This document shows, piece by piece, positions 4,507 through 63,783 of a stretch of DNA of 64,000 bases; positions within the stretch are counted from its first letter, which is position 1, and every line of letters starts with the position of its first letter. The stretch covers positions 11,255-75,254 of the IMG/VR virus record IMGVR_UViG_3300038345_000103, one strand, 5' to 3'. The position numbers and the translations under genes were made by a program. The notes under the pieces were generated by a model. That model was not told the DNA's origin. It did no database searches and was given only the letters and a program-made list of their open reading frames with translations. Source of the stretch: a virus (taxonomy: Duplodnaviria > Caudoviricetes).

Positions 4507-4690
4507 GGCAAAGTTATGTGGGTTTATCTTTTGTCATGGGCATAAAGATTTTTCCATATGGGAAACAGATGCTATTAACAAAGAAGATAGCGAAGCAATT
4601 CAGAAGATTCTCAGCAAGTATGATACAGAGGGAACAAGCGTAAGAAACTGTTGGGATTCAATATCAGACATTATGAACGAAGAATATTAA
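4499..4690 (+). CDS. hypothetical protein
   Basis: ORF coupled to the previous gene. Confidence 0.55.
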   Translation: MDKAKLCGFIFCHGHKDFSIWETDAINKEDSEAIQKILSKYDTEGTSVRNCWDSISDIMNEEY

Positions 4691-4707
4691 TAAAAAGGAG
4701 ATAAGAC

Positions 4708-5607
4708 ATGAACGCATTAATCACAAAAGTTATTTTTAATAATCCCGCAACTATCGTATTTTGGAATGACAATACTAAGACAGTAGTCAAGGCAAATAAG
4801 GATGATGTATTTGATGCTGAAACAGGATTGGCAATGGCAATCACTAAAAAGATGTGTAATAACATCCATTGGAAGAATGTATTTCAGATTATTACCACCG
4901 ACGACAAGATTAAGGGAAAGATTAACAGACGAAAACTTGGCGATGATAGAACCATAGCATTGTGTTATGCAAGAGCATATTATCACAATGATACAAATTG
5001 GTATAAGAAGTTTTCTGCATGGCTTCCTAAAGAGAAACATGTCGATAATCAGAAACAGGTCGATAATCATAGTTATGGTGATTGGAAGGAGACGAATCCT
5101 GAATCAGAAGCATATATCGCGGCTCCTCCTGTTTTATCAGCAGAGCCGACACTTAATGACAAGATTATTGCAATGTTCAATGCCGGACGGAGCATTAATT
5201 CTATCAGCAAGGAAACTGGAATATCAGTTTACTATATAAAGAAATACATTGATACAGCAACCACTCCCAAAGCAAACAAGGGAAAGGCAAATAGGATTAT
5301 CAAGGCTGCATTAAAACCTAATAGAACAAGAGCATCTTATACTGTTCGTACTCAGATAGATTTTCCTAAATATCTTGATAAGAATACTTGTGAAGAAATC
5401 TTAGCCCAGACCAAAGAGAAATATAAGGATAAGCCGAAGTCACATTGTATGTCTGAACTTCAGAGATTGTTTATAGCAGAATGTAAAAAGCATTATATAG
5501 CCACTCATTATGGTCATGGTTATGATATGTATGCTATTGCAAAGACACTTGGTACTAATGCTTCAGCAGTTCAAAAGATATGGAACGCGATAAAGAGAGG
5601 TGAATAA
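4708..5607 (+). CDS. phage protein with PATIVFW-D-TKTVVK N-terminal domain and probable HTH
   Basis: common phage N-terminal motif; GRSINSISKETGIS is HTH-like. Confidence 0.65.
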   Translation: MNALITKVIFNNPATIVFWNDNTKTVVKANKDDVFDAETGLAMAITKKMCNNIHWKNVFQIITTDDKIKGKINRRKLGDDRTIALCYARAYYHNDTNWYKKFSAWLPKEKHVDNQKQVDNHSYGDWKETNPESEAYIAAPPVLSAEPTLNDKIIAMFNAGRSINSISKETGISVYYIKKYIDTATTPKANKGKANRIIKAALKPNRTRASYTVRTQIDFPKYLDKNTCEEILAQTKEKYKDKPKSHCMSELQRLFIAECKKHYIATHYGHGYDMYAIAKTLGTNASAVQKIWNAIKRGE

Positions 5608-7392: not shown

Positions 7393-7600
7393 AATTGGTG
7401 GATGGACCGATGTAATTGCGTTTAGCGAAAACAAAGATAAAGCACGGGATTTAGCAGTACAGGCAAAGAAAGCACGGTGTCGGGATGACTTGGACAAATG
7501 GAACTGGCAGACAGTTTCAGATTATTATGGAGCAACATTACATTATGTTTGTGATGGCTTGCTTATTATTGAAGGAGATGATACGAATGAAAACCGGTGA
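7379..7600 (+). CDS. hypothetical protein
   Basis: RBS GGAGG. Confidence 0.55.
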   Translation: MWMARIGGWTDVIAFSENKDKARDLAVQAKKARCRDDLDKWNWQTVSDYYGATLHYVCDGLLIIEGDDTNENR

Positions 7601-7763
7601 TAGAGTGAAGATAATATCAGTTCCTGATTATTGTCGGGAAGATTTAGGTAAATACGGAACTGTAATGGAAACCAAAACATTTTATGGTGGTGTTGATGTC
7701 CTGCTTGATGGAGATGATGGACTGACTGCTATTTATGAGCAGCAATTGCAAGTTCAAAATTAA
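7587..7763 (+). CDS. small SH3/KOW-like hypothetical protein
   Basis: MKTGDRVKI...GTV motif. Confidence 0.5.
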   Translation: MKTGDRVKIISVPDYCREDLGKYGTVMETKTFYGGVDVLLDGDDGLTAIYEQQLQVQN

Positions 7764-7767
7764 GCAC

Positions 7768-7796
7768 TTGACAAATTGCCTACTGTACGATATAAT
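7768..7796 (+). promoter_or_regulatory. sigma-A promoter
   Basis: TTGACA-17 nt-TATAAT, perfect consensus. Confidence 0.85.
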
Positions 7797-7829
7797 AGCG
7801 TCACAACGCAACTAATAAGGGAGGTAAAA

Positions 7830-8090
7830 ATGACCTTAGCAGATTTAAATTTGGTGTTAAAAAAATATAATATTCCTGAGAATGCTACGATAATAGTATT
7901 TACTGATGAAGATTTTTGGGAGTTAAGTATAGTTCGCATTTTTTATAATAAGATAAGCAATCAATTGTGTATTTGTGGTAATGATGAAAACAATATAAAT
8001 CTTTTTGACCATGCTGAAGAGCGTTTTAAGAAAAGAGATGGTTGGAAACAACTTTATTATCGTGACGAATGGAAAACTTTATTTGATTAA
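7830..8090 (+). CDS. hypothetical protein
   Basis: RBS AAGGGAGG downstream of the promoter. Confidence 0.6.
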   Translation: MTLADLNLVLKKYNIPENATIIVFTDEDFWELSIVRIFYNKISNQLCICGNDENNINLFDHAEERFKKRDGWKQLYYRDEWKTLFD

Positions 8091-10050: not shown

Positions 10051-11256
10051 ATGTTACGAAAACACGAACTATTGGGAGATTTACGGAAATTATTAGCTTT
10101 AAATGTGGCTCAGAAAAATTGGCAGAAGGATACTGCTACAAGCATTCATGAAAAGCGAAATATCCCTATTGAAATACTGATAGATATTCTTACGCAAAGA
10201 ACAGATATTGAAGATTATAATGAGTTTACCTTATTCTGTATTGCTGAAGCCTGCAATCTGAAACACGGGTTAGATTACTACTTCACTCAGTCAGAAATCA
10301 ATGATTTTAATCATTATGTCCTGAAGACAACAGAAGTAAAGTTCCCTTATAAATTTGAGGTCATAGAGGTTGTTGAAAATTCACAATATATAGGCAAAAC
10401 ATCAGTTAAAGAACTGATAAGATTGCGTGATGCTCAGCTTATTAATTATAATGAGAATGCTCAACGAACCCTTAAACGGATGAAAACCGAGGGTGGTGTT
10501 GAAATATCCTCAATCGACTTAAACCGCAAGGCTGTAAACGAAATCATGCATGACCTTACAACCGGTGAATTTATTCCTAACACTCTGACTTTCGGCATAT
10601 CGCCCGATACCGACTTCGAATATAATAAAGAAAGCAGAACGTTGATAATCAAAGATAAAATCAGATTTGATATTCTCGACGGCTATCATCGTTATATCGC
10701 CCTGTCTAATAAGTACAACTTAGACAATCGTTTTGATTACCCTATGGAGTTACGCCTTGTAGTATTCCCTGAAACAAAGGCAAGACATTTCATCTTTCAA
10801 GAGGATAAGAAGACTAAGATGCGGAAGATTGATTCCGATGCTTTATCTGCTACTGACCCTGCTAACGAGGTCTGTGCTAAGATAAAGAACAAACTTGCCG
10901 GTAATATCCTCGTAGCACGTAACAACGGAATTATCGATGAGTCGGTATTATCTGAAATGATTCGCTGTTTATGTATCAAAAACGGTGCTAAGTATGACAA
11001 CAAGATAAAGAATAGGATAAGCGACGACTTTGTTAATGCAGTTCTTATTGGGGAAGATACATTTAACACTATCGACCTAAAGGTAAAGTGGTCAGTATCA
11101 CTTACTGTTGCGTTTACATTATTGGTATATACATTCAGATTGAATGAAAAGCTTCTTATCTCTATAGATAAAACCATAAGAGAAAAGAAACTTATTACAG
11201 GCAAGACAGTTAACAGGACAGTCATTAACCGAATACGAAAGGAGGTATTGGTATGA
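10051..11256 (+). CDS. DGQHR/DndB-like (ParB-fold) protein, SPbeta YopQ-like
   Basis: INYNENAQR, ILDGYHRY, FIFQED motifs. Confidence 0.75.
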   Translation: MLRKHELLGDLRKLLALNVAQKNWQKDTATSIHEKRNIPIEILIDILTQRTDIEDYNEFTLFCIAEACNLKHGLDYYFTQSEINDFNHYVLKTTEVKFPYKFEVIEVVENSQYIGKTSVKELIRLRDAQLINYNENAQRTLKRMKTEGGVEISSIDLNRKAVNEIMHDLTTGEFIPNTLTFGISPDTDFEYNKESRTLIIKDKIRFDILDGYHRYIALSNKYNLDNRFDYPMELRLVVFPETKARHFIFQEDKKTKMRKIDSDALSATDPANEVCAKIKNKLAGNILVARNNGIIDESVLSEMIRCLCIKNGAKYDNKIKNRISDDFVNAVLIGEDTFNTIDLKVKWSVSLTVAFTLLVYTFRLNEKLLISIDKTIREKKLITGKTVNRTVINRIRKEVLV

Positions 11257-39960: not shown

Positions 39961-40049
39961 CTGTCATCCCTACCTTTCCCTTTTAATAAAAGTAAATACC
40001 ATGCTGCTAATAGCAAATAAAGTAAGATTCCTAAAATCCATTTCAACAT
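39957..40049 (-). CDS. 30-aa single-TM peptide coupled to the holin
   Basis: MLKWILGILLYLLLAAWYLLLLKGKGRDDR; its stop overlaps the holin ATG (ATGA). Confidence 0.5.
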   Translation of the reverse strand: MLKWILGILLYLLLAAWYLLLLKGKGRDDR

Positions 40050-41056
40050 CTCATATGCACCACCCCTACTTTCTTAAAGAATCCTACTAACATATCGTCA
40101 GATGTTGCATCATTATAATGATTAACCATCTCCGGCGAATCCCAACCGACAAATTCCTGAACAATATTCTCAGGGACGCCAGCCTTCAAAAACTGCGTTG
40201 TGGCATAATGTCTGATACTATGCCAATAAAAATCCTTGCCTATCATAGTTGTCAATTGGGCAGCCCAATAATCCATTGAATCTACGGTAATATGTTCAGC
40301 CGGATTTGCAGTTTTAGGGAATAACCATATACTGTCAATACCCTTTGCCTTTCTATCATCCAACCACAGCTTCAAATACGGGTCAAATGGCTCCTTTAAT
40401 ATATACAGGTATATTTGTTTACCCTTGGAACCTTTTCCTTTAGTTATGACCTTTTCAGGCGTCTTATAGAAGATGTTTTCCAATACACACTCTGGTGTAA
40501 AGTATGATACCTTAAAACGTGTAATCTCTGCTTTACGTCGAGCAGAGTTCATAGCAAGGCTTAACGCACATGCTATTTCATATTGTTTCTTTTCTACCAA
40601 AGTATCTAATATTGATTGTAGTTCCTCCGGTTCAAAAACGGTTTTATCACGCACTAATACTTTAATAGGATTTTTAATCTTATTAATAATCGGACGAAAA
40701 TCTTTAAATTCTTCTTCTTCATCAAGAATGTCTTCAATAAAACTTGATAATGAAGACAAGGTTGACTTCACACGACGTAATCTGTTTGGACTCCATTCCC
40801 ATTCAGACAACGCTTTACCTTGAAACTTTGTTAAATCTTTCTTTGAAATTTCAGTAAATGGCTTATTATCATTATCCGTTACATTCCAACAAAAGAAGAA
40901 GTTTAAGTCATACTTATACTGTTCAATCGTTGTCTTTGCCTTATCTGTAGATTGTAGATATTCAAGAAATGATGTAATTAAATAAGCATTTTGTCTATGA
41001 AACTTTGCAATTAATTCAGGTTTCGTAATAAAGTTGAGTTTTGTTTGTCTTGACAT
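40043..41056 (-). CDS. tyrosine recombinase in the late operon (SPbeta YomM-like position)
   Basis: SARRKAE, KGKG, HSIRH, GW, NHY; RBS AAGGAG. Confidence 0.88.
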   Translation of the reverse strand: MSRQTKLNFITKPELIAKFHRQNAYLITSFLEYLQSTDKAKTTIEQYKYDLNFFFCWNVTDNDNKPFTEISKKDLTKFQGKALSEWEWSPNRLRRVKSTLSSLSSFIEDILDEEEEFKDFRPIINKIKNPIKVLVRDKTVFEPEELQSILDTLVEKKQYEIACALSLAMNSARRKAEITRFKVSYFTPECVLENIFYKTPEKVITKGKGSKGKQIYLYILKEPFDPYLKLWLDDRKAKGIDSIWLFPKTANPAEHITVDSMDYWAAQLTTMIGKDFYWHSIRHYATTQFLKAGVPENIVQEFVGWDSPEMVNHYNDATSDDMLVGFFKKVGVVHMRC

Positions 41057-41970
41057 CCTTGTTCTCCTTTCCAAATACTTAGCCACCTTTGACGAGTAGC
41101 CGTATAAGTATCTTCACTTTTAAAATCCTTTGGTATCCTTGTTATAATCTCTTGTAAATTTGTTATCCTCGTTATGTCCAATGGTACACGATAACCATTA
41201 ATGCCATTCTTAACTACATCACGGAATATCGGTATATCACATACAATCACCGGCGTACCAATCATCAATGCTTCATGTACTGCCCGACAATATCCTTCAG
41301 ACTCTGATAATTGAATCAAATAATCCGCATCAGAGATACGTTGATATAAATCTTCCTGAGAAATCTGTTGATAACAATGAATCATATTATAATGATACAT
41401 ACTTGTATCACAATAATTATCCCAAACAAAATCCACATTCATCTTACATAATATCTCACATAGCTGCTGCATACGCTGGCTGCCCTTTTTAGGCTGTATA
41501 CGGGTACAGCTTATCAATCGTAACTTCTGATGCGATTGTTTTGGTTTTAACTTTGGTACTGGCACCAACAAGCCCTCGACATAACTACATGGTAATCCAA
41601 ATCTTTTTGTAAAATTCTCTGCCGCATAACGTGATACTGCTATATAGTTTTCATTAATACAAAAAGAAGGTGGAACTTTATAATCAATCCCACCATAATC
41701 ACAATGCAATATTGTATATGCCTGCTTACATTTCACATTCTTTGGTGCAGGTTTCCAATTATATGAGTTAATAAATATGTCAGTTACATAGGTTGCTGTC
41801 TTATCATAAAACTGAAAGTCATCAAACTGGTACATGAACCGCCTTGATTGGTCATCGGTCATGATTGTTATCTCATAATCATCTTTAAATGCATTATAGA
41901 ATGACAACAACCACGTATAAATCCCGTTAATCCATTTAAGATTTTCAACGTACAATAAAATCTCTTTCAT
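41011..41970 (-). CDS. glycosyltransferase, GT-B (family 4-like)
   Basis: SESEGYCRAVHEALMIGTPVIVCD. Confidence 0.85.
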   Translation of the reverse strand: MKEILLYVENLKWINGIYTWLLSFYNAFKDDYEITIMTDDQSRRFMYQFDDFQFYDKTATYVTDIFINSYNWKPAPKNVKCKQAYTILHCDYGGIDYKVPPSFCINENYIAVSRYAAENFTKRFGLPCSYVEGLLVPVPKLKPKQSHQKLRLISCTRIQPKKGSQRMQQLCEILCKMNVDFVWDNYCDTSMYHYNMIHCYQQISQEDLYQRISDADYLIQLSESEGYCRAVHEALMIGTPVIVCDIPIFRDVVKNGINGYRVPLDITRITNLQEIITRIPKDFKSEDTYTATRQRWLSIWKGEQGCQDKQNSTLLRNLN

Positions 41971-42793
41971 TCATCATTCCTTTTATTTCTTCACGTAATT
42001 GTTGTATATCCTCTTTGATTGTTTCGTCTTTGATTTCCATATAAGTCCGATACATAGTATACAACAACAAACCCTTTTCATTTCTTATTAACTCCGCATC
42101 TTGAACTATTTCTTCAAGAAACTGCAATCGTGCCTGATGAGCCAAAATTAAATCCTTTGTTTTATATAGATTACGTCCGGCTATTTGTCCACCAAACCGA
42201 TAATAATATGTAATCATCGGTAGGAGAGCAATACTTTCTGCTTTCCATACTAACTTATGAGTAGTGAACGTATCGTTATGTGTTAGTCCAGTTGGGAATT
42301 TTATATCATTAAATAACTTACGCCGATATAATTTATTCCATACTGTATTAAAAGTCACATTAAAAGCCCTAAATGGGAATCCACATATCTCCATCAACAC
42401 TTGACGCTTGTCAAATATAATAGGCTTATCAGAACCTGAACCTAAGTTAACATCTGCCTTTTGTGTATATCTACCTACAGCAATATCAGCATTGGTATCT
42501 ATCAGTGTTCGCATTAGTAATTCCAACGTCCGGCGATAGATATAATCGTCCGCATCCATAAAATATAGATACTCTCCTCGTGCATATAATAAAGCAATAT
42601 TCTGTGCTTCCGCTTGCCCAACATTATGGTCGAGGGTGATTTGTTCCACACCCTCAAACTCATAATGCCGTTGACTACCATCATCAACAAGGAGAAACTG
42701 TATTTTAGAAAATGTCTGATTTAATACTGAATCCACAGCTTGCTTAAGCTGGTCATATGGAGTATTATAATATGTCATAATTACAGTAATCAT
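41945..42793 (-). CDS. glycosyltransferase family 2
   Basis: LLVDDGS, YFMDADD, VWNKLYRR. Confidence 0.9.
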   Translation of the reverse strand: MITVIMTYYNTPYDQLKQAVDSVLNQTFSKIQFLLVDDGSQRHYEFEGVEQITLDHNVGQAEAQNIALLYARGEYLYFMDADDYIYRRTLELLMRTLIDTNADIAVGRYTQKADVNLGSGSDKPIIFDKRQVLMEICGFPFRAFNVTFNTVWNKLYRRKLFNDIKFPTGLTHNDTFTTHKLVWKAESIALLPMITYYYRFGGQIAGRNLYKTKDLILAHQARLQFLEEIVQDAELIRNEKGLLLYTMYRTYMEIKDETIKEDIQQLREEIKGMMNERDFIVR

Positions 42794-52180: not shown

Positions 52181-55100
52181 TCACTTATATTTACGTAATG
52201 AATTTGAATTGCTATTCAGCATATTATAAGTCATGCTCTGAATAAGATATTCGAACGACTTATTCTTCTTACATTCATCAATAAATGATGCATAGTCTGT
52301 TACATTCTCAAGATTAATTGACATATTATAATTTACAGAGTTAGGCATTCCATATACACTACTAGCAGCACGATTGAAGTCTAAGCCTCTCTGACTCATA
52401 GCATTATAAATTGCATACAGCCCCTGATTATAAGCCTGCTGGAATGCAGCACTATTTAATACGTCACTTGATACTGACTGCAGTTTAACACCACTTGTTG
52501 TAGTAACAGTAGACGATGTTGTCTTTGTTAAAGCACTCGGATTCTTTGTTTCCTTAACAACATCAGCATCAAACTTTCTCGCTAAAGCCTCAAGGTTCAA
52601 ATTAAATTGCTTTGCAGACCCTGCAAGACTTTCAATATTAGCATAAAGTTCTGAACGATTAATCTTTTCATCCGAATACTGTTTATAATAATCCTGCAGT
52701 TCCGGTGTAATCTTCAAGACGCTCTCTCTAATACGTGATACATCGCCGTCCATCACAGCAATGCTACCATTAACATCTTGAATACTGCCATTTAAAACAT
52801 TATTCATCGTTTCAGTAAGTTGTACTGTTGCTTGCTTACTATATACTAACGAATCATCAAGCGTCTTTTTAACAGCCGGAATATTATCACGTACAAGATT
52901 CTTTGCTTCATTTAGTATTGCATCGGTATTTTCAAGCTTATCATTGAAGTAATCTTCTAATGACTGATACATACGGTCAAGAATTGCCTGTTGGTCTTGC
53001 AACCTACGGTCGTATTCTGTATCACTACGTCCCTCCTCAGCTTCCTGTAACTGTACAGTTAACTGTTGAAGCTTCATACGAGCTTCCTCCGATGTATCAT
53101 TAGCATACGCAGCCATCTGTTTTCTGAGGTTAGCAATATTCTTGGTCTGTTTCTCTATATTCTTTTGATAATCGTATAGATTCTTCTCAGCATTCAAAGC
53201 TTCCATGTACTTGTTAATCAAAGCATCTAAGCTCTCAAGCTGTTTGTCATAACCCTCTTTTACAAGGTCTACGACTGCCTGTTTTTCATCATTATAATTT
53301 TCGATTATCTGTCTCTGTTCAGACCTTAATGTATCAAGTCGTTCAAGGTTTTCAACGTTTGCAGTGTCCTTAAGATATAATTCCTCAGCCTCTGCAATAC
53401 GCTTATTGTAATCCTTGATTTCTTCATAATATGCCCTACGCTTTACAATATGCATTCCTAATGTAGCAAGCCCTTCATCAGAAAGAACACCATTATAAAG
53501 TTTTGTCTTTTCAGCATCATTACCCAAGAACTCACGAACATATTGATACATATCATTACTACTAAGATTGTTTATCAAGAAGTCGGCTTCATCAGTAACC
53601 TTATAACGTAACTGATTAATCTTATCATCAAGTTCCCATTCGAGTTTCTTGATTTCATTTTGCCATGACGCTATGGCTTCTTGGTTTGCATAAATAGCAT
53701 TTGTTGTCTCATCAATCTGTCCCTTAAGGTCATACCAATGTTTTAATTCGTCCTCGGTAGTAGGGATAAAACTCTTTAATTCAGCGGTTAACTGGTCACG
53801 CTCTGCAATATTACTTGCCAACGCCTTGGTTTGAGAATTAATCTGAGCGATAATCAACTGCTCATTCTGCATAAGCCCCTCTGTTGTACGCATTGTCTGA
53901 TAATGTTCAAGAGACTTCTGTCTCTGTTCATATTCCTTAAGCACCCTATCGTACTTATTAACAATACGTTCAATATCTTCCTTTTTCTGTGCGAGGTCAT
54001 TGTCTTTTATCTGAATACCAATCTCTATCTGCTTTTTAGCAGCATCACGCTTATTATTCCAGTTATCAACCATCGCACTTATCGCACTTGAAAGTTCGGA
54101 CGACATGCTTTCGAGATTGATGCTTTCGCCTGCCATTATCTTATTGACAAGAGCAGTGGCGGCTTTCTTTCCACCGGCGGCTTCAACAAGGTCATTATAC
54201 AATACGCCGGATGTCATTCGACGCATGTATTCTTCCTCGGCTACCTGATATGCCTTACGCTGTTCCTCAAGAACAACGTTTGCCGCTTGCATTGCCGCTT
54301 TACGTTGGTCATAATATGAACCCTCAATGTTCTTGCCACTCATGGTCATCTTCATGAGGTTTTCATATTCTTTATTCTTTTCCTCAACAAGACGATTGCG
54401 CTTTTCAAGATATTGCTCAAGCCAGTCAAGGTTGGCTTTGGATTCCTCGGTTCCCTTATCATTATCATTAGTAGGAAGCCACTCCATACCTTCAAGTTCC
54501 TCAAGAAACTTAATAGCTTCAATAACTTCGCCAGTATTCTCTCCAAACAGATTGTTTAAAGGAGCACGCTTCTCAAGGGCTTCATGATAAATACGCCTTG
54601 CATCATCAACAGACCTCATAAGTCCCTGCTGAGCCCATGACAACCGTATGGTAGCCTTATACATTTCTGCCATATATGAAACATACTCATTCGACATTCC
54701 TGCATAAGACTTTATCAAATCTTTTATGTTCTCTTCCTGAATACTGTAAGAGTCATTTGAGTATTTAACAACAGCATCCTTAAGGTCAGGATACTTGTCG
54801 ATGATTTCGGTCATTTCCTTATAAGTTAATTTTGCTCCAGCGTTTATCTTGTTGATTGAATCGCTGATAGACGAATCGGTCTGACCATTTAATTCCGCAT
54901 ATGAATCACGCAGCTTATAGATACTCTCTGAACCACCAAGAGCTTCAATCTTTATATTATGTAAAGACCTTAATAAAAGATTTTTATCTCTTGCATTCAT
55001 ATCAAGGCTATTTGTAAGACGAGCTTCTGCATCATCAATATAAGCAAAGATAGCCATGTAATCTTCGCCAAACTGGTCGATGTATTTCTCAAAGCCCTCC

Positions 55101-58100
55101 ATGCCAAGAGCCTTAAACAGGTCATCATTAGCAGTAGTACGAACAATATCACCAAAGTCTACCTGTATCTGACCCTCTCTGTCATTACGAATAAAATCTG
55201 TTAATTGTTCGAGACTACCTTTATAAGCATCAATTAATGCGTTGTTAGTATAAGCCGTGTCGCCATTCTTAACATTAGAATCCTTGTTAAGCCATTCGGT
55301 GTAATCAAAGACTTCGGTCTTTTCACGCTTTAATTCTTTCAGTCTCTTCTTATACAAATCAAAGAGGTCATTAACATCATGCATGCCCTCTTCAACTGCC
55401 TCTTTAATAACTTCATCAAAGAGATTGATTTCTTCCCACGTGTCAACTTTTAAATCTTCAAATGCCGACTTGATTTCTTCCTGATTCCACTTAAGAGGAG
55501 CCCCATAATTCGGGTCACCATAATAACCCATATGTGTAAACTGCCTGTTAGGATTCTGAACGCCATTTTCCCAGCCCAAAATCTTTGAGCTAAGAATATG
55601 TTGAGCACGTTCTCTAATATTCTGTGCTTCTGCAAGTTCCTGAGCAACTTGTTTCTCATATGCAGTGTTAATATTATCAAGTTGTGTTTCAATATTATTA
55701 ACAATACTATCATAAGGAATGAGATGTGAAGCTCCCTCAAGATAATTTTTAGTGATTTCATAAAGTCTTTGATATTCACTATAATCACCGGACGCATATG
55801 CTTCATTTAATTGCTTAAGATAATCATTAAGTTTATTATATAAAGCAGTAGAAGCGGGGTCATTAGCAATTAAAACTTTCTCATACTCAGCTATAAGATT
55901 TTCAGCGTCAAGAGCATTGTTAAGGGCACTTTCTGTATTATTAATGATTTCGCCCCAAACCTTACCCAAATCTTCAAGCATTTCTTGATAAACATCGATA
56001 TATTCTTCACTAAGCCCCGCATTCTTAACCAATGCTTCAGCGGATGCTCTATTTCCACTTGCAAAATCTGCTATGGTTGTATCAATAATATCTTTAAAAT
56101 CTTGAACATTAACAGTATCAAAATCAGCATTATGCTGTTTTAATAAATCATCTAAAAAAGTAATAAAGAGTTTTGCTCTATATCCACTATTATATGAAGA
56201 TGAACCTATTAATTCACTTATGTATTTTCTGTCATTAATGGCTTCTTGAGCACTCTGATATGCCCCTGCATTTTCAGCAATATAGGCATTACGCTGTTTG
56301 TTTTCTATGCCATTAAGCAAATCAAGCTGGTCTTGATATTTGCCATTAACAAGGTCGAGACCGGCAGCAGTAATCCCATACTGTTCATTAATATCTTCCT
56401 GCAAATCATACATACTCTGTTTTGCAGTAAAAATATCAGCCTCTGTTGCCCCTGTATCGCTTAAAACATCATGATATTCATTATATTTCGCAATGAAATC
56501 ATTTATAGTTTGTGTCTGTCTCTTGTATTCTTCGGTGGAATCCTTAAGAGCATTCAGCATTTCACGTGTTTCTTTACGAGCGTTTTCTTCGTAATGAATA
56601 ATCGCACTTAACCCACGTAAAGCATAAGATACAGCTATAGAAATACCTATACTAAACGCCGCATTTAACAAGCCCTGAGCAATTGATAATGCCTTGGTAG
56701 CTCTCGCCTGTTCTTCGCAGGCGTCAGTCACAGCTTTAGTTTCCACGTTAGACTCCATTTGGTCTTTAAGGAATACTTGAGTAGTAGGAGACAATGAAGA
56801 CATAGATTCATTAAGACGGGCACATGCTTCATCATATGAAAGTACACCTTTAACACTTTCATTAATAATAGCCATATCTTGTTTAGATATTGCCACTTTA
56901 GGCATTTCTAAACCAAATAATTTCGCACCAAGACCAATTGTACCCCTATTCAATCCATTGGAACCACCAAACACACCCTTAGCAGTTAATATGCCACCAA
57001 CGATACCACCAACAGGAGCTATCTTTAAAACTTTAAATGCAAGACTCAATAAGTCCATAGCGGCAGAAATAACAGGCATTACATCTGCACCGGTAGCCCT
57101 TATATCATTAATTAAACCATCTAAAGAATCAATGATATTCTTAATACTATCTGAATCAAGAACTTCAATTGCAAGTTGTTTTAAATCATTCTTAAGAACA
57201 TTTGCACGTTTTTCAATTGATTCCATTGAAGTTTCTACCGCACGCTCACCTGCACCTGCAGCATTATTCATCGCATCAGCATACGCACTTTCAAGAAGTT
57301 CAGGCGACTCAAGAATAGAAGCCGCTGCGGCACCACGTACCTTACCAGCCATGATTTCCAACAGTTCGGCTTTTTGCATGTCACCGATGTCTTCCCAAAC
57401 TTTAGAAATTTCTAATAGTATTTGATATGTACTCTTATAGCCACCAGTTATTTGGTCTACAATAGTAACACCAGAGGGATTGTTTACAGTTTTAGTTAAA
57501 TCCTTAATCTTATTATTTAACTTAGAAAAGTCTTCTATAAGACCTTCGGTATCTTCACCAATTTCTTCAAGTGCAGAACCAGTAGTACCCCTAAGCCTCA
57601 TACTTAAGACCTTCAAAGCATTACTTACAGCATCGGCATCCTGCATAATAGTATTACCGGCAATTTCAAGAGCTTCAATCTGCTCAAGAGAATTACCCGC
57701 AACCTTCAATGCAGCCATTGATTTGGTTAATGATGTAGCTAAAGCCTCAGATGTAATTGAGTAATTGTTGCCTAAAAATATGTACTGGTCAACAACTTTA
57801 TTAATATCCTCAGCTTTCATTTCAAAAGCCTGCATTGACGATACGAGAGCAGTAGTAGCACTGCTAATATCCATCATACCGCCCGTTGAAAGTCTTGCAG
57901 CCTGTTCAGCCAATATCATTGACTCATCAATAGTCTTACCTAATCTACGCCATTCAGTAATAGAAGATACAACCTCGGTTGTAGACATACCCAAATTATT
58001 GGCAAGTTCATATGCTTCTCTACCAACACGATTAACAGACGCTTCGCTTTCTCCACTGACAATCCTTAACTGATTAAGTGCAGAGTTAAGGTCTGTAACT

Positions 58101-61100
58101 GCTAACGCTGCCGCTCTGATATATCGTATAAAATCCTGAAATGACATATATTGAGCAATCATACGGGCAGATGCCTGAGAAATATCATTCTTAATCATTC
58201 CAAAGAATGAACGTCCCGTCTGACCGGTTTTTATCATTTCATTTTTAAGTTCAAGGAAACGATTGGTGAGTGCTCTAACTTGCTCCTGTGAAGCTCCTGT
58301 GTTTAAAGCCTCTTGTAATGAAGCATTAAGAGAATCAAACTGTCCACGTAAATCCTTAGACATTTTGGTATTATCAGCGAGAGTACTACTAACATCACCT
58401 AATAATTTTGTTATCTTTGTTTCATTACCAATCTTTTCAAACTGAGTATCTATCCCTTTTAATGTATCCAAATACTCTTTTAACTTTTGAGTATTAGTTT
58501 CATCAAAATAATTCTTTTGAGAAAGAGCATCAAGGCTTTGTTGTACTACACCCACAGATTCAGGCGAATATTTACCGGAATCAATTTTACTCTGTAGTTT
58601 ATCTCTTACATTTGTAATATTTGTTCTTAACTCTTTCCCTAACAAAACCTGAGCTTCTTGTTGAGCCAAAAGTCTAGTCTCTTCATAAGTCGTCCTAGCC
58701 TTCTCAAGCTCTTTCGTACGCTCTTTAACAATGCTTAATATCTCATTCTCAGTTTCACGCTGTTCCTGAAGATTGCTAAGCGTCTTTGATTCAGTTTTAG
58801 ATAATTCAATGCCAATTCCGCGTTTAGCCGCTAAGCTTTGGAATTGACGTTCATTTTTAATAAGACGATTATAATACTGAACTGCCTGTTTAACATTGGC
58901 GGCGTTTTCATCTTTAGCCTGTTTAGTCTTTTTGGTTTGCTTTGCTTTGTTGACAGTCTTGACATCATCAACGGCACCCTTTAACTGACCAACAACATTA
59001 ACCTCATCACCAACAACGCCCTTAACAACAGACCCCTCAGCCTTAAAAGCTTCCGTCTTTTCATTCGTTGCTTTAGTAACACTTTCAACGCTCTCTCTTA
59101 AATGGTCAAAGCCCTTAGCTTCTTTTTCGACGCTCTTATCAGATTTGCCTGTCGTCGATTTAAGAGATTTCATTTTATCAAATTGCTCTTGATATTCATT
59201 AGCAACTTGTTTAGCTAATGCAAGACTTGTACTTAAAGCCTCATTCTGTTCTTGAAGAGCCTTAGCCTGCTTTTCAGTCTCTTTAAGAGTCTTCTCTGCT
59301 TCTTCTCTGGCTTCAAACTCTTGGTCGGCTCTTTCTTTAGCCCTAGCTTCTTCACGTGCAGCGATATTACTCATATCTTCATAAAAGCTTGCACGCCCCT
59401 CTGCTTCTTTGCGAGCCCGACGTTCTGCTTCAACAGATGCCTCAAGCGTATCATTAAGTTCCTTTTGTCTACCTAACTCTTCATCAACAAAAGTATAAAA
59501 ACGCTGGTCTTCTTCCATCTCTTCATGCATAGCGTCAATCTGCTTTTGACGTTCTTCGCTTTGTTCTTTAAGTTCGGCATTTTGTTGTTGCAATTCTTCG
59601 GTTATCTGTTTTTGTTTGTTAAGTTCTTCATCAAGATACCCCGCCGAACCCAAACTACGATTCAATTCCGTCTGTAATGAATCAGCCTCACTTCGATAAG
59701 AATCGGATTCTTCTTTGAGCAAAGCATTGCGTTCTTGTAGTTCTTCATTTTGTGCACGAAGTTCTTCAGTAATCTGTCTTTGCTGTTGTAACTCATCAGA
59801 AATTAAGTCTTCTCTGGTATTGGCATCACCAAGTTCATCTAAGGCAGATTTATAATCTCTATTGGCTTGGTCGAGTTCGTCTTTTACTGCACTAAGTTCT
59901 TCTTCGGTATGAGCCGCTTCATCTGCCAATGCATGTAATTGTTGTTGATATGATTCAGCACTTTCTTCGGCTTCTTTAAGTTTGGATTTAGTTTCTGCAA
60001 GTTCAGATTGAAAATTTCTATTAGACATGTTGTCAAAATCATATCCAATATTTTCTAAATATGTATGAGCCTTAGGCAGCGTTGCAAGAAAATCATTCCA
60101 AGCATCTGTTTTAGTAAATTCATTTGCCTGTTCCCAAGATATAAATTTATCCTTAAATTGTTCGATTTCCGGATATCGTTTTAACATCTTTGATATATCA
60201 TAATTATAATCTTTGATATATTCTGGATTTTTTTCGATTTTTAATTCATTGGTAACATCTACAAAATCTTTAAATTTAGATGTAATATTTTCAACATACC
60301 TTCGACTTTCTGATAAGTCTTGTGCAAAATGTTGTCTTAACGACTCGCTTTTACTTTCTATATGTGATATTTCATCACTAATTCCTTCAAATTCAGAGGT
60401 TAAATTAAAAATATTAGCGCGAAGTTGAGAATCATTATTATTCCTACCAATTTTCCATATTTCGTCAATATAATCGCCATAACCTTCGTCATACTTTAAT
60501 CTGCTTCTATATTGTCCATAATCATCATGTACAAAATTGCCACCATCATTACCCCATTGTCCTTGAACAACACTAATACTATCAAAGAAATAAGTAGCAA
60601 GTTTTTGAAGTTCTTGTAATTTCTTTTCAATTTCTTCAGTTTGAGGCAAAAGTTTAAGTCGATTAATTTCCTCTATTGTATTTTTATAATTTTCCAAATA
60701 AACAATATCATGTTGGACAATATTATCAAACTCTTGCGTAGGCGACGATTGAGCAGTCTCTCCAGTTCGACCAGATGCTTCGCCAATTTCTAAAAGAGTT
60801 CTTTTAAATTCAAGAGCCGCAATATTTGCTTGCTGAAATCTTGCTTTACCCTCTGTTCCAATATCGGCAATAACACTTTGAACCATATTATAATCATCCG
60901 GTTGGAGAAGTTCTTTAGTGCCATCTACAAAAGTTACTAAAATACTTTCGTAATTCTTTAATTCTTCTGTTGCTTTCTTAGCAGCATCCTGCCCAAATAA
61001 ATCAGGATTATCTCTTTGATTTACCAAATCAACAACATCTTGTAACTTACGATATTCTTCATCACTTATCTCTGGAAAAAGAGGCGATATTTGCTTTGAC

Positions 61101-63157
61101 TGTTTACTAACCTTGACTATTTCTTCTCCAAGGTCACTCATATCTTCAGTTGTTTCTTTTATACTCAAATCTAATTTAGAAGCAATCTTATCATCCATTG
61201 CTGCAAGATATGCATCTACATCATCTTCATTAATTATTGACTTTGTAACCATCGCAGGCTTTGCAGATTCAATAAGTTGGTCAAGCATTTTTATATCATT
61301 ATTGATAGATGTTTGCATTTTCTTATCAACTGAAGAAAAATCCGCTTCACCCTTTAATCGTTGTAATTCATCACGAAATTCAGTTATCTGACTAATTGCT
61401 TCATCAGAATTATCCATAAGAGTAAATGGAGCCGTAGACAAATCTACATTTGAATTAATCCATTCTCCAACCATCTTTTCATATTCAGACAGTTCTTCAG
61501 AAAACCCTTTAACCATTCCCTGAATTGCGGCTTTACCCGCCTCTTCGCCGGCTTTTTCAATATCGTCTGTACGGTCTGTTAATTCTTCAACTACGCCATT
61601 AATAACATTATCAGCCGCCTGTCTAGCCTTTTCAGAAGGAGAATGTGAATCAGTAGCCTTATTAAAACTTTCTGCAAACTTATCATAAAAACCCTGAGCA
61701 AAAGGAATTTTTTCAAGGTCTTTATTCATTTCTTCACACTCTGCTTCAATTTCTCCAACAACGCCACCTCGGAAATCATCAAGAAAATCTTCAACTCCTT
61801 GATACATAGCAGGTTTTAAATCCAAGTCAATAAATCCAAAACCCTTTTCTTTATCATAAAAAATATTAGACATATTAATATCAACACCTATGCCTAATTC
61901 TTGAAGCTTTTTAATATCCTCAGCAAATCTGTTAATCTGTTCCTCAGTTGCATCTAAGAAATCCCAATTAATAAAGTCAACACCATTACCAAGTGTTTCA
62001 CCACTCATTTTTTCTTGGATTTCCATAAACACTCTTGAACCATCATTAATAACATCAATGATTCTTGAAACATTAACACCTTTTTTATAAGCTTCATCAA
62101 GTTTTGTCATTAACGCCTGACTATTTTGTAAGCTTTCTTCAGTATTATTTCTTAATAAAACAACCGTATCTTCTCCAATAATACCGCCCTCATTTGTATG
62201 CCCTTGATTAACCAGCTTTAAACTCTCAGTCTCCTTATTAATAAGTTTTAATTCCTCTAAAGATTCTCTGAGTTTTGCATTAGTAGTATCAAGTCCCGCA
62301 ACATCGCCAACCTTTTTAATCTCATCAAAAAGATTTTTATAAGCATCTGCAATATGTTGGTCTGCAGCCGCATCGCCTAATGACTCAACAGTTTTGCTCA
62401 TTTCCTTTAAAGACTCTTGTGTTTTTGCTACACTAACACCTGAACTTTCTAGCAAACCGTTGATAACATCACGAATCTGATTCTCCGTTGCATTTTTAGG
62501 CAAATTTTGTCTAATAGTATTAACTACATTCTTAGCTATTTCAGTTGTAGCCCTGTAATCTTTTATCTTATCCTGAATTGCTATATACCATTCCTGATAA
62601 GTCTGAGAAGCCTTAGTAAATTTTGCTTCTAAATCAGAGCCTATTTTATATTCACCGGAATCCTTACCACCAAGACCAACTCTCAACTCATTCATTAAGT
62701 CATCATATGCATCTTCCCATGACTCTTTAAACTGGTCAGGAAATTTAAACTTACGTGTCTTAGCAACAGTCATTGCTTGGAAAAATTCATCTGTAAATTC
62801 CTGAGCGGCTTCTTTGCCATATTCCTTTGATACTTTTATCATATTCTCAAAGGCTGATTTAATTTTAATATTCAATGACTTTTCGTTGAGCTTCATATAA
62901 TTACCTATATCAAACTCACCCAATTCAGCTTTTACTTCTTTCTTAACACCATTTAAAGCTTCAAATAATCCTTTGCTAAGTGCAAGCTGAAATGATTTAG
63001 AATCCCAATCAATATCATCTAATTTTAAATTATATCGAGATAATGCTTTTTTAATAATACCTTCAAAGTCTATTTTACTCAATCTGTCTGTCAAACCAGA
63101 TTCAACACTATCTGCTATTTCATTCCATATAGCACTATAATCATAAGTATTATTCAT
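52181..63157 (-). CDS. tail tape measure protein, 3658 aa
   Basis: TP901-type core (LNSALNQLRIVSGES..ALKVLSMRLRG); long coiled coils; HSPS motif; kinase-like insert near the N-terminus. Confidence 0.92.
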   Translation of the reverse strand: MNNTYDYSAIWNEIADSVESGLTDRLSKIDFEGIIKKALSRYNLKLDDIDWDSKSFQLALSKGLFEALNGVKKEVKAELGEFDIGNYMKLNEKSLNIKIKSAFENMIKVSKEYGKEAAQEFTDEFFQAMTVAKTRKFKFPDQFKESWEDAYDDLMNELRVGLGGKDSGEYKIGSDLEAKFTKASQTYQEWYIAIQDKIKDYRATTEIAKNVVNTIRQNLPKNATENQIRDVINGLLESSGVSVAKTQESLKEMSKTVESLGDAAADQHIADAYKNLFDEIKKVGDVAGLDTTNAKLRESLEELKLINKETESLKLVNQGHTNEGGIIGEDTVVLLRNNTEESLQNSQALMTKLDEAYKKGVNVSRIIDVINDGSRVFMEIQEKMSGETLGNGVDFINWDFLDATEEQINRFAEDIKKLQELGIGVDINMSNIFYDKEKGFGFIDLDLKPAMYQGVEDFLDDFRGGVVGEIEAECEEMNKDLEKIPFAQGFYDKFAESFNKATDSHSPSEKARQAADNVINGVVEELTDRTDDIEKAGEEAGKAAIQGMVKGFSEELSEYEKMVGEWINSNVDLSTAPFTLMDNSDEAISQITEFRDELQRLKGEADFSSVDKKMQTSINNDIKMLDQLIESAKPAMVTKSIINEDDVDAYLAAMDDKIASKLDLSIKETTEDMSDLGEEIVKVSKQSKQISPLFPEISDEEYRKLQDVVDLVNQRDNPDLFGQDAAKKATEELKNYESILVTFVDGTKELLQPDDYNMVQSVIADIGTEGKARFQQANIAALEFKRTLLEIGEASGRTGETAQSSPTQEFDNIVQHDIVYLENYKNTIEEINRLKLLPQTEEIEKKLQELQKLATYFFDSISVVQGQWGNDGGNFVHDDYGQYRSRLKYDEGYGDYIDEIWKIGRNNNDSQLRANIFNLTSEFEGISDEISHIESKSESLRQHFAQDLSESRRYVENITSKFKDFVDVTNELKIEKNPEYIKDYNYDISKMLKRYPEIEQFKDKFISWEQANEFTKTDAWNDFLATLPKAHTYLENIGYDFDNMSNRNFQSELAETKSKLKEAEESAESYQQQLHALADEAAHTEEELSAVKDELDQANRDYKSALDELGDANTREDLISDELQQQRQITEELRAQNEELQERNALLKEESDSYRSEADSLQTELNRSLGSAGYLDEELNKQKQITEELQQQNAELKEQSEERQKQIDAMHEEMEEDQRFYTFVDEELGRQKELNDTLEASVEAERRARKEAEGRASFYEDMSNIAAREEARAKERADQEFEAREEAEKTLKETEKQAKALQEQNEALSTSLALAKQVANEYQEQFDKMKSLKSTTGKSDKSVEKEAKGFDHLRESVESVTKATNEKTEAFKAEGSVVKGVVGDEVNVVGQLKGAVDDVKTVNKAKQTKKTKQAKDENAANVKQAVQYYNRLIKNERQFQSLAAKRGIGIELSKTESKTLSNLQEQRETENEILSIVKERTKELEKARTTYEETRLLAQQEAQVLLGKELRTNITNVRDKLQSKIDSGKYSPESVGVVQQSLDALSQKNYFDETNTQKLKEYLDTLKGIDTQFEKIGNETKITKLLGDVSSTLADNTKMSKDLRGQFDSLNASLQEALNTGASQEQVRALTNRFLELKNEMIKTGQTGRSFFGMIKNDISQASARMIAQYMSFQDFIRYIRAAALAVTDLNSALNQLRIVSGESEASVNRVGREAYELANNLGMSTTEVVSSITEWRRLGKTIDESMILAEQAARLSTGGMMDISSATTALVSSMQAFEMKAEDINKVVDQYIFLGNNYSITSEALATSLTKSMAALKVAGNSLEQIEALEIAGNTIMQDADAVSNALKVLSMRLRGTTGSALEEIGEDTEGLIEDFSKLNNKIKDLTKTVNNPSGVTIVDQITGGYKSTYQILLEISKVWEDIGDMQKAELLEIMAGKVRGAAAASILESPELLESAYADAMNNAAGAGERAVETSMESIEKRANVLKNDLKQLAIEVLDSDSIKNIIDSLDGLINDIRATGADVMPVISAAMDLLSLAFKVLKIAPVGGIVGGILTAKGVFGGSNGLNRGTIGLGAKLFGLEMPKVAISKQDMAIINESVKGVLSYDEACARLNESMSSLSPTTQVFLKDQMESNVETKAVTDACEEQARATKALSIAQGLLNAAFSIGISIAVSYALRGLSAIIHYEENARKETREMLNALKDSTEEYKRQTQTINDFIAKYNEYHDVLSDTGATEADIFTAKQSMYDLQEDINEQYGITAAGLDLVNGKYQDQLDLLNGIENKQRNAYIAENAGAYQSAQEAINDRKYISELIGSSSYNSGYRAKLFITFLDDLLKQHNADFDTVNVQDFKDIIDTTIADFASGNRASAEALVKNAGLSEEYIDVYQEMLEDLGKVWGEIINNTESALNNALDAENLIAEYEKVLIANDPASTALYNKLNDYLKQLNEAYASGDYSEYQRLYEITKNYLEGASHLIPYDSIVNNIETQLDNINTAYEKQVAQELAEAQNIRERAQHILSSKILGWENGVQNPNRQFTHMGYYGDPNYGAPLKWNQEEIKSAFEDLKVDTWEEINLFDEVIKEAVEEGMHDVNDLFDLYKKRLKELKREKTEVFDYTEWLNKDSNVKNGDTAYTNNALIDAYKGSLEQLTDFIRNDREGQIQVDFGDIVRTTANDDLFKALGMEGFEKYIDQFGEDYMAIFAYIDDAEARLTNSLDMNARDKNLLLRSLHNIKIEALGGSESIYKLRDSYAELNGQTDSSISDSINKINAGAKLTYKEMTEIIDKYPDLKDAVVKYSNDSYSIQEENIKDLIKSYAGMSNEYVSYMAEMYKATIRLSWAQQGLMRSVDDARRIYHEALEKRAPLNNLFGENTGEVIEAIKFLEELEGMEWLPTNDNDKGTEESKANLDWLEQYLEKRNRLVEEKNKEYENLMKMTMSGKNIEGSYYDQRKAAMQAANVVLEEQRKAYQVAEEEYMRRMTSGVLYNDLVEAAGGKKAATALVNKIMAGESINLESMSSELSSAISAMVDNWNNKRDAAKKQIEIGIQIKDNDLAQKKEDIERIVNKYDRVLKEYEQRQKSLEHYQTMRTTEGLMQNEQLIIAQINSQTKALASNIAERDQLTAELKSFIPTTEDELKHWYDLKGQIDETTNAIYANQEAIASWQNEIKKLEWELDDKINQLRYKVTDEADFLINNLSSNDMYQYVREFLGNDAEKTKLYNGVLSDEGLATLGMHIVKRRAYYEEIKDYNKRIAEAEELYLKDTANVENLERLDTLRSEQRQIIENYNDEKQAVVDLVKEGYDKQLESLDALINKYMEALNAEKNLYDYQKNIEKQTKNIANLRKQMAAYANDTSEEARMKLQQLTVQLQEAEEGRSDTEYDRRLQDQQAILDRMYQSLEDYFNDKLENTDAILNEAKNLVRDNIPAVKKTLDDSLVYSKQATVQLTETMNNVLNGSIQDVNGSIAVMDGDVSRIRESVLKITPELQDYYKQYSDEKINRSELYANIESLAGSAKQFNLNLEALARKFDADVVKETKNPSALTKTTSSTVTTTSGVKLQSVSSDVLNSAAFQQAYNQGLYAIYNAMSQRGLDFNRAASSVYGMPNSVNYNMSINLENVTDYASFIDECKKNKSFEYLIQSMTYNMLNSNSNSLRKYK

Positions 63158-63174
63158 TGTAACACCTCCATTTA

Positions 63175-63783
63175 TTACTTAATTATATTTTTCCAACGCT
63201 TAGTATAATTGCCCCATAAAGAATAAAATGCTTTACTGGAGATATTATTCCATTCTTTATCAAATTGCATAAAAGCATCATATATAGTTCCACCGTTAAA
63301 ATGTATATACGTTCCTTTATATTCCATAGTATGAGGATTAACCATCATTGGGTCATATCGCTTTCCACCATTAGTAGAAAATCCAAATGGGAACCTTATA
63401 CCATGCATTACACTATCTAATACATGTTCAGGTGTATCATATTCATATCCACCTTGCATACCCTCGGCTGAAAAAGCTATATTAAGTGTCGGACTTTTTT
63501 TACCATTATTACGTATAGTAATTTTACTATCATCTCCACCGGCTAACAGATTAGTACCCTCTTGAGTTCCAGCAAATGGTTCTCCATGTCTTATGTAACT
63601 TGTAGTTTTATATTCATAAAACTGTTGAATTAATGTTTTATACATATTTAAAGCTTCTTTTCGCATCTTTGGATTAATCTTTTTAGCGCAATCAATAAAG
63701 TCATTTCTAGCCTGTTTCATAACTTGTCTTACAGTTCCTTTAATCGTACTATTCGCACGTTTTCTCTCTGTCATAATTTTCAC
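63175..63783 (-). CDS. late-region hypothetical protein
   Basis: directly upstream of the TMP gene. Confidence 0.6.
   Translation of the reverse strand: MKIMTERKRANSTIKGTVRQVMKQARNDFIDCAKKINPKMRKEALNMYKTLIQQFYEYKTTSYIRHGEPFAGTQEGTNLLAGGDDSKITIRNNGKKSPTLNIAFSAEGMQGGYEYDTPEHVLDSVMHGIRFPFGFSTNGGKRYDPMMVNPHTMEYKGTYIHFNGGTIYDAFMQFDKEWNNISSKAFYSLWGNYTKRWKNIIK

Follow-up and report, generated by a model that had tools for sequence, protein, structure and literature searches.

A minimal protein-kinase-like domain in the N-terminal region of a giant phage tape measure protein

The type III effector kinases NleH1 and NleH2 of E. coli and OspG of Shigella (Pfam family PF22303; PDB entries 4lrj, 4o96, and 4q5h) are active protein kinases that are injected ready-made into the target cell, and they consist of a minimal kinase fold of approximately 165 residues without an activation segment or a GHI subdomain. 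RIO1 and Bud32/PRPK (PDB entries 1zp9, 7szc, and 8k20), which function in ribosome and tRNA maturation, are likewise compact, two-lobed kinases that have no activation loop. This paper describes a predicted protein-kinase-like domain that is part of the giant tape measure protein (TMP) of a tailed phage (Caudoviricetes), encoded within a 64,000-nucleotide stretch of DNA (positions 11,255 to 75,254 of IMG/VR record IMGVR_UViG_3300038345_000103) that is referred to below as the window, and weighs whether this domain would be delivered to the host cell by the phage tail.

Kinases are encountered in several phage contexts, and one of these, the T7 kinase (T7K, gp0.7), disarms host defences by pervasive phosphorylation early in infection (PMC13645617). 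Moreover, a polyvalent-protein kinase clade has been described that has lost the C-terminal subdomain with retention of the active-site residues, that carries a conserved Gln on the final strand of the N-lobe, and that is found in large multidomain proteins of phages and conjugative elements as well as in stand-alone copies (Iyer, Burroughs, Anand, de Souza, and Aravind 2017; PMC5512222). Members of this clade were assigned to Verrucomicrobia-Chlamydia and Bacteroidetes (pro)phages, delivery together with the DNA and a T7-kinase-like action were predicted for them, and the paper makes no mention of TMPs (PMC5512222). An enzyme that is carried by a TMP is known from Thermus phage P23-45, in which the N-terminal portion of the 5,002-aa gp96 is a virion RNA polymerase that virions contain as part of full-length gp96 and that is located, 5 min after infection, on the phage DNA (PMC10770324). 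Full-text literature searches with tape measure protein and kinase terms found no paper describing a fusion of these two.

The window is a portion of a 75-kb IMG/VR viral contig with an estimated completeness of 47%. The original prediction, made from the letters of the window, held that an open reading frame containing a set of kinase motifs encodes a TMP, and this was borne out, as all of the quoted strings were found at aa 317-446 of a product that matches the Pfam family PhageMin_Tail (PF10145) and TMP families of PHROG. The gene, the domain, and its motifs are located as follows.

52181 to 63157, minus strand: giant TMP gene, 3,658 aa (P0001), from the open reading frame list and translation, with matches to Pfam PhageMin_Tail and PHROG TMP families
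61748 to 62272, minus strand: minimal protein-kinase-like domain, aa 296-470 (conserved core aa ~313-447), from homologues, AlphaFold2, Foldseek, and VIA-align
62183 to 62209, minus strand: Gly-rich loop NQGHTNEGG, aa 317-325, from conservation and its place between beta1 and beta2 in the model
62150 to 62152, minus strand: R336 on strand beta3, at the place of the ATP-binding Lys of canonical kinases, from alignment columns
62000 to 62017, minus strand: end of beta5 and hinge, QEKMSG, aa 381-386, from conservation
61865 to 61882, minus strand: catalytic loop DINMSN (D426...N431), from conservation and the NleH1 alignment
61826 to 61828, minus strand: D444, the DFG-type metal-binding Asp, in GFGFIDLD, from conservation and the NleH1 alignment

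Checking by translation placed GVNVSRIIDV at aa 360-369, MEIQEKMSG at aa 378-386, GVDINMSNIFYD at aa 424-435 with D426 and N431 at 61865-61882, and GFIDLD at aa 441-446 with D444 within it. The interval that had been proposed for the domain, 61790-62225, covers aa ~311-456 but is not in frame.

A model of aa 296-470 (175 aa) was built with AlphaFold2 from a 52-row alignment (A4) and reached a pLDDT of 90.4 and a pTM of 0.84. Its elements follow one another as beta1-beta2-beta3-alphaC-beta4-beta5, hinge, alphaD, alphaE, catalytic loop, two short strands, and one helix, which is the canonical kinase order, cut short one helix past the DFG position and ~25 residues past D444. The modelled fold is bilobed and protein-kinase-like, and a D-x4-N catalytic loop and a metal-binding Asp 13 residues on, two further features of the protein-kinase-like superfamily, are present. 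On the basis of this model, aa ~296-470 are predicted to be a genuine, stripped-down protein-kinase-like phosphotransferase domain, in which the activation segment and the GHI subdomain are missing, as they are in the minimal kinases NleH/OspG, RIO, and Bud32.

Comparison of the model with known structures pointed to the same kinases. In a Foldseek search against the PDB the best 500 matches all had E<=0.001 and the 50 of these that were listed were all kinases (50/50), with NleH2 (4o96, E 8e-6) on top and OspG, NleH1, RIO1, WbdD, capreomycin phosphotransferase, and CK2 following. VIA-align placed RIO1 at Z 10.9 (153 residues aligned), OspG at Z 10.2 (139/169 residues), PRPK/Bud32 at Z 10.0, APH(2'') at Z 9.9, and NleH at Z 9.3, so that NleH and OspG span Z 9.3-10.2 over 139-148 of 160-171 residues and the highest structural scores belong to the RIO1 and Bud32/PRPK set. 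Among the matches listed from the viral structure library BFVD nearly all were annotated as kinases, and none was a TMP. These searches agree with the kinase-like fold of the original prediction and with the RIO-like kinship that it had proposed, to which Bud32 and NleH/OspG can be added as close matches. The RIO1 and Bud32/PRPK kinases share with the TMP domain a segment of the type 'A...G(V/I)N/xV' after alphaC; the 175-aa model has neither the N-terminal helix nor the flexible loop specific to RIO, and the similarity to RIO is structural only.

Conservation of the motifs was determined in an alignment of 131 homologous domains, in which column counts are expressed out of 132. The Gly-rich loop (G319 132/132; G324 123/132), the segment after alphaC (G360 124/132), the end of beta5 and the hinge (Q381 127/132; G386 132/132), and the region from G422 (124/132) onward all proved to be strongly conserved. 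Position 426 is always acidic (D 97, E 35), N431 and D444 are found in 131/132 and 132/132, respectively, and the intervening stretch is held by Y434 (106/132), D435 (121/132), G439 (122/132), and F440 (129/132). The catalytic residues of protein kinase A (PKA) are D166, N171, and D184, and the distances in the TMP domain, 5 residues from D426 to N431 and 13 from N431 to D444, are the same as those in PKA. The motifs quoted in the original prediction are the best-conserved columns of this alignment, and since they stand in 131 homologous domains and within a bilobed kinase fold, a chance origin is ruled out; the Gly-rich loop, the hinge, the DxxxxN loop, and the DFG-type Asp thus take the places that had been assigned to them. 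More variation was seen at column 336 (R 99, T 15, Q 7), where K or R is present at 336 or 337 in 118/132 and no basic residue is present in 14/132, and at the alphaC Glu, E355, which is found in 65/132.

Some of these features recall the polyvalent-protein kinases, a clade that is compared here by its published description. Both have lost the C-terminal subdomain with an intact active site, and the Gln at the end of the last N-lobe strand corresponds to Q381 at the end of beta5. In contrast, the polyvalent-protein kinases have a conserved His that an insert separates from the Asp, whereas the TMP family has no conserved His before D426; the clade has a Glu N-terminal to strand 2, and the TMP family an acidic residue before beta3 (E329; D/E in 106/132).

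At the sequence level, the models of OspG_kinase (PF22303), RIO1 (PF01163), and APH (PF01636) gave no match against the whole viral record (E<=10 for PF22303 and RIO1), and phmmer of the domain found no match among PDB sequences. When 17 family members were compared with the same models, the best hit to PF22303 (cut-off 27 bits) was a single member at E 0.037, and 3/17 reached the APH model PF01636, with a best E of 0.032. A profile made from alignment A4 was uninformative against the PDB, as its coiled-coil flanks drew dyneins and SMC proteins, and it was replaced by the domain-only alignment A5 of 17 sequences. With the A5 profile NleH1 ranked first among PDB sequences (E 0.0039), and NleH2 (E 0.06) and OspG (E 0.12-0.18) were found as well. 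The NleH1 alignment spans alphaE, the catalytic loop, and the DFG position (LEQKGIlFVDTTETNVLYDRAKNeFNPIDIS in NleH1 and Leengl.gvdlngsNilYDkekG.FsfiDLd in the consensus), with the D426-N431 loop on 'VDTTETN' and D444 on 'PID' of NleH1, and the common pattern from catalytic loop to DFG can be written as 'VD....N(I/V)LYD..K..F..ID'. The N-lobes of the two families cannot be aligned by sequence, and the effectors have a beta3 Lys where the TMP family has Arg. A protein-language-model search listed, at scores of 0.95-0.96, an OspG-kinase cluster and one labelled 'putative Ser/Thr kinase', together with stand-alone viral proteins 189-226 aa in length. A further sequence link is a bona fide APH-family protein (P0151), which the domain matched at E 5e-4 in a scan of 1.84 billion cluster representatives. 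Since no Pfam kinase model matches, aa ~296-470 are, as judged by sequence, an undescribed family of the kinase-like superfamily, and its closest relatives are the minimal kinases NleH/OspG, RIO, and Bud32. The earlier label of an eukaryotic-protein-kinase/APH/RIO-like kinase therefore stood for the superfamily fold; it did not extend to a named Pfam family, or to the beta3 Lys, which is Arg here.

The distribution of the family was investigated with a HMMER scan of aa 296-505 against 1.84 billion cluster representatives, which yielded 153 proteins at E<=1e-3 and 84 at E<=1e-10, corresponding to a family size of at least 153 clusters at 50% identity. Nearly all of the 153 representatives are TMP-like proteins of 1,000-4,500 aa in which the match lies 200-1,800 aa from the N-terminus, and identity among members is 24-50%. 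The default bias filter of HMMER dropped true domain matches in coiled-coil-rich TMPs (0/69 by default and 2/69 with --max, in the closest TMP-core relatives), and counts of the family that come from default searches should be read as minimum values. Three family members gave no match by tblastn in 50,697 GenBank phage records, so that no cultured phage with the family is found in this collection. A pattern-based locus search gave 0 and then 2 loci in viral contigs, 4 in metagenome contigs, and 1 in genome contigs. A 374-aa open frame that matches the domain at E 8e-45 (G001:C40:25302-25796) lies on a 30-kb contig of a metagenome-assembled genome of an uncultured member of the Bacilli (L019), and it accounts for one of the 2 domain matches among 399 genomes sampled from the phylum of the domain-bearing assembly.

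Besides the TMP-borne copies, a stand-alone homologue of 248 aa (P0122, L009:8001-8747) was found on a 131-kb phage contig, where its neighbours form a replication module (DnaB helicase, PD-(D/E)XK nuclease, and Pol III alpha). This protein retains the catalytic E/N/D and is without R336 and Q381, and its place in a replication module argues that the family works inside cells. Five proteins carry two domain copies per polypeptide (P0022, P0023, P0037, P0040, and P0048); the copies of P0023 are at L016:1310-1858 and 4574-5122 and those of P0040 at L013:6221-6730 and 7529-8026, and in P0022 approximately 3,470 aa precede the core.

The position of the domain relative to the TMP core was uniform. 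The core and the region ahead of it have the following locations in the window.

57344 to 58015, minus strand: PhageMin_Tail (PF10145) core, aa 1715-1938, from Pfam
58600 to 63157, minus strand: variable N-terminal 'cargo' region, aa 1 to ~1,500, not common to the closest TMP relatives
59843 to 60775, minus strand: second shared module, aa ~795-1105, all-helical, from sequence matches and AlphaFold2

In all proteins with both elements (62/62) the kinase-like domain is N-terminal to the PhageMin_Tail core, 425-1,937 aa upstream of it and approximately 1,250 aa upstream in the window TMP. Among the 69 closest TMP-core relatives the domain was found in 2 with the HMMER filters off and was missing from 67. 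The similarity of the closest relatives (P0153-P0156) to the window TMP begins only at aa 1463-1573, which upholds the extension of roughly 1,500 aa upstream of the core that had been noticed at the outset. Because 2/69 of the closest relatives carry the domain and similarity begins only at aa ~1,500, the kinase-like domain is an optional, swappable module in a variable region of ~1,500 aa ahead of the conserved TMP body.

Further globular-looking islands had been suspected in this extension, and one other widely shared module was indeed found at aa ~800-1100, but it is predicted to be all-helical at modest confidence (AlphaFold2 pLDDT 70, helices only). This second module is common to 8 other kinase-bearing TMPs (E 1e-48 to 1e-59) and has no Pfam match. 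The near-identical relative P0003 retains the kinase module, with 96% identity over aa 1-686, and has unrelated sequence in place of the second module in a protein that is otherwise 94-96% identical. In a related phage (L015:4001-13403) a gene of 1,800 aa with the kinase domain and one of 1,995 aa with PhageMin_Tail are separated by a 370-aa HNH gene, which encodes a homing endonuclease (PHROG 374, E 2e-57); an Rfam search of the interruption found no intron, and the endonuclease may be free-standing, with the TMP truly split in two, or an intron may have gone unrecognised. The split was considered as evidence for a separate N-terminal protein and was dropped as such, since the intervening gene is a homing endonuclease and gives no clean evidence either way.

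The assignment of the 3,658-aa product as a TMP is based on the PhageMin_Tail match (TP901 type, aa 1715-1938, E 3e-20 in Pfam), on several matching PHROG TMP families, on hydrophobic segments downstream of the core (aa ~2026-2058 and 2162-2181), and on the place of the gene between genes of chaperone size and distal tail genes. The closest named TMP cores are those of large Bacillota siphoviruses, i.e., Brevibacillus phage Sundance, Bacillus vB_BanS phages of 160-170 kb, and Lactococcus LW81. Of these, vB_BanS_Sophrita (TMP of 3,094 aa) and Sundance also resemble the window phage in a genome of ~160 kb, in gene order, and in having an integrase by the tail genes. The Sophrita TMP differs in that its core is approximately 660 aa from the N-terminus, versus approximately 1,700 aa in the window TMP, and the family profile at full sensitivity found no kinase-like domain in it.

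63175 to 63783, minus strand: 202-aa gene immediately upstream of the TMP gene, from the open reading frame list, with a size and position like those of a tail assembly chaperone

From this size and position the 202-aa gene product is presumably a tail assembly chaperone; a PHROG search with it gave no match. Gene order is the same in related metagenomic loci on contigs of up to 166 kb, where two genes of ~190 aa occupy the place of the 202-aa gene and, together with a Peptidase_S74 fibre gene, lie upstream of the TMP gene, and where DUF6558 and a tail protein of 1,200-1,600 aa lie downstream. Just past the tail genes of the window, at 40043-42793 on the minus strand, a tyrosine integrase gene (PHROG 1) and two glycosyltransferase genes, one of them GtrB-like, were found, and an integrase gene adjoins the TMP region also in Bacillus phage Sophrita and in locus L014. 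One kinase-bearing TMP of 4,545 aa (P0130) has a C-terminal LysM domain (aa 4372-4420), which would fit a Gram-positive host for some of the family.

The favoured reading of these data, to which we give an even chance, is that the domain is a virion-carried, probably active phosphotransferase that would be released into the host at injection; catalytic activity, virion presence, delivery, and targets are what we infer here. In siphovirus tails the C-terminus of the TMP is at the tail tip and the N-terminus is head-proximal. The kinase-like domain would accordingly be carried in the virion by the TMP, where the tail adjoins the head, and would exit the tail last, just before or with the DNA. 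It would then fold or refold in the host cytoplasm and use host ATP-Mg to phosphorylate host proteins ahead of any phage gene expression, with host defence or takeover proteins as candidate targets. Activity is favoured by the existence of stand-alone homologues and by the fact that members with 24-50% identity retain N431, D444, the Gly-rich loop, and an acidic residue at 426. Delivery in the virion is made more plausible by a module that is optional and swappable and always N-terminal to the core, and by the precedent of P23-45 gp96. Like the window TMP, gp96 is a giant TMP with the enzyme N-terminal to the TMP body, an architecture that the two have in common; the P23-45 enzyme is a two-barrel RNA polymerase, its host is a thermophile of Gram-negative type, and it has no sequence relationship to the window N-terminal region. 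Injection as a ready-made enzyme would be shared with NleH/OspG and is a proposal for the TMP domain, with the difference that the effectors pass by type III secretion into eukaryotic cells and a phage tail protein is aimed at bacteria; for RIO1 and Bud32, the roles in ribosome and tRNA maturation contrast with the proposed one as phage virion cargo. T7K, a phage kinase of the same superfamily, would serve as the functional model, and differs in being a separate, non-virion early gene product made after DNA entry, of another sequence family, with a DPV variant of DFG and a DNA-binding C-terminal domain.

Several observations weigh against an active, delivered kinase. The beta3 Lys that canonical kinases need is replaced by Arg in 99/132 members, Lys-to-Arg at beta3 is a standard kinase-dead mutation, and the window domain with its R336 does not have the beta3 Lys and alphaC Glu pair, which weakens the case for a canonical active kinase and leaves the fold assignment unaffected. 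The alphaC Glu is half conserved (E355, 65/132), and 27% of the members have Glu at the catalytic-base position. Pfam and PHROG scans of the domain yielded nothing significant, with no match to a Pfam kinase model, and for the APH-family protein P0151, hhalign with A5 aligned the catalytic core only, over 48 columns and at a probability of 13%. By our own estimate, three folded 20-kDa domains are too large for the lumen of a siphovirus tail tube, which implies that the domain would be unfolded, outside the tube, or removed. Finally, the family is without a cultured phage member among the 50,697 GenBank phage records. The active-site points would fit a kinase fold that is not a canonical protein kinase, such as a nucleotide- or partner-binding pseudokinase or an enzyme of other chemistry, which could be AMPylation (SelO), glutamylation (SidJ), or small-molecule phosphorylation (APH, Kdo kinases). 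The Arg at beta3 in 75% of members, with no basic residue in 14/132, the Glu base, the weakly conserved alphaC Glu, and the fact that the small-molecule kinases APH and APH(2'') are as near to the TMP domain in fold as protein kinases are would all suit this explanation. We nevertheless hold it to be unlikely, as essentially every member, in spite of the deep divergence, retains the Gly-rich loop and the three residues that carry out the chemistry in all active kinase-like enzymes (acidic 426, N431, and D444), which is typical of active enzymes, and the closest relatives among PDB sequences, NleH and OspG, are active protein kinases.

The lumen estimate, taken together with the known processing of TMPs such as lambda gpH and T5 pb2, speaks for a different explanation, in which the domain is active but not delivered and acts late in the producing cell, or in which the N-terminal extension is cleaved off during tail assembly. 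The stand-alone homologue in a replication module adds to this that delivery is not required for family function. Two facts set against it make this explanation improbable to a similar degree: the module is always fused to a TMP or directly upstream of one, and N-terminal to the core in 62/62, which is hard to explain without a packaging role, and in P23-45 virions the enzyme is still joined to the full-length TMP and then works in the host. The explanation that the domain serves tail structure or assembly and has no enzymatic role, e.g., by halting or spacing tube polymerisation or by giving chaperones a place to dock, would account for its occurrence amid long helical stretches in a length-determining protein, but is very improbable. 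The domain is missing from 67/69 of the closest TMP-core relatives and from giant TMPs of the Sophrita type and is therefore dispensable for tail building, its invariant metal- and phosphate-handling residues have no structural rationale, and stand-alone copies exist outside tail modules. Thus, fold, catalytic-type residues, N-terminal position, and dispensability for tail building are a better fit for a cargo enzyme than for a structural element.

A wider proposal is that giant siphovirus TMPs serve as injection vehicles for effector enzymes, that the active minimal kinase of a new family described here hits defence or takeover targets before transcription, and that NleH and OspG, some of which are prophage-borne, come from the same phage kinase stock; taken as a whole, this proposal is tentative and we regard it as doubtful. 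Should virion delivery hold true, its meaning for phage biology would be considerable. Phage kinases of the T7 type need transcription and translation first, which leaves host immunity time to act, and a tail-carried kinase released with the DNA would close this gap. It would also represent a second enzyme class beside the single TMP-fused enzyme that has been shown experimentally, that of P23-45, and would turn the carrying of cargo by tape measures into a general principle. For a large family that has neither a Pfam model nor a cultured phage, the family definition alone would improve the annotation of metagenomic phages, and the sequence link to NleH/OspG leads to a testable idea on the origin of minimal effector kinases.

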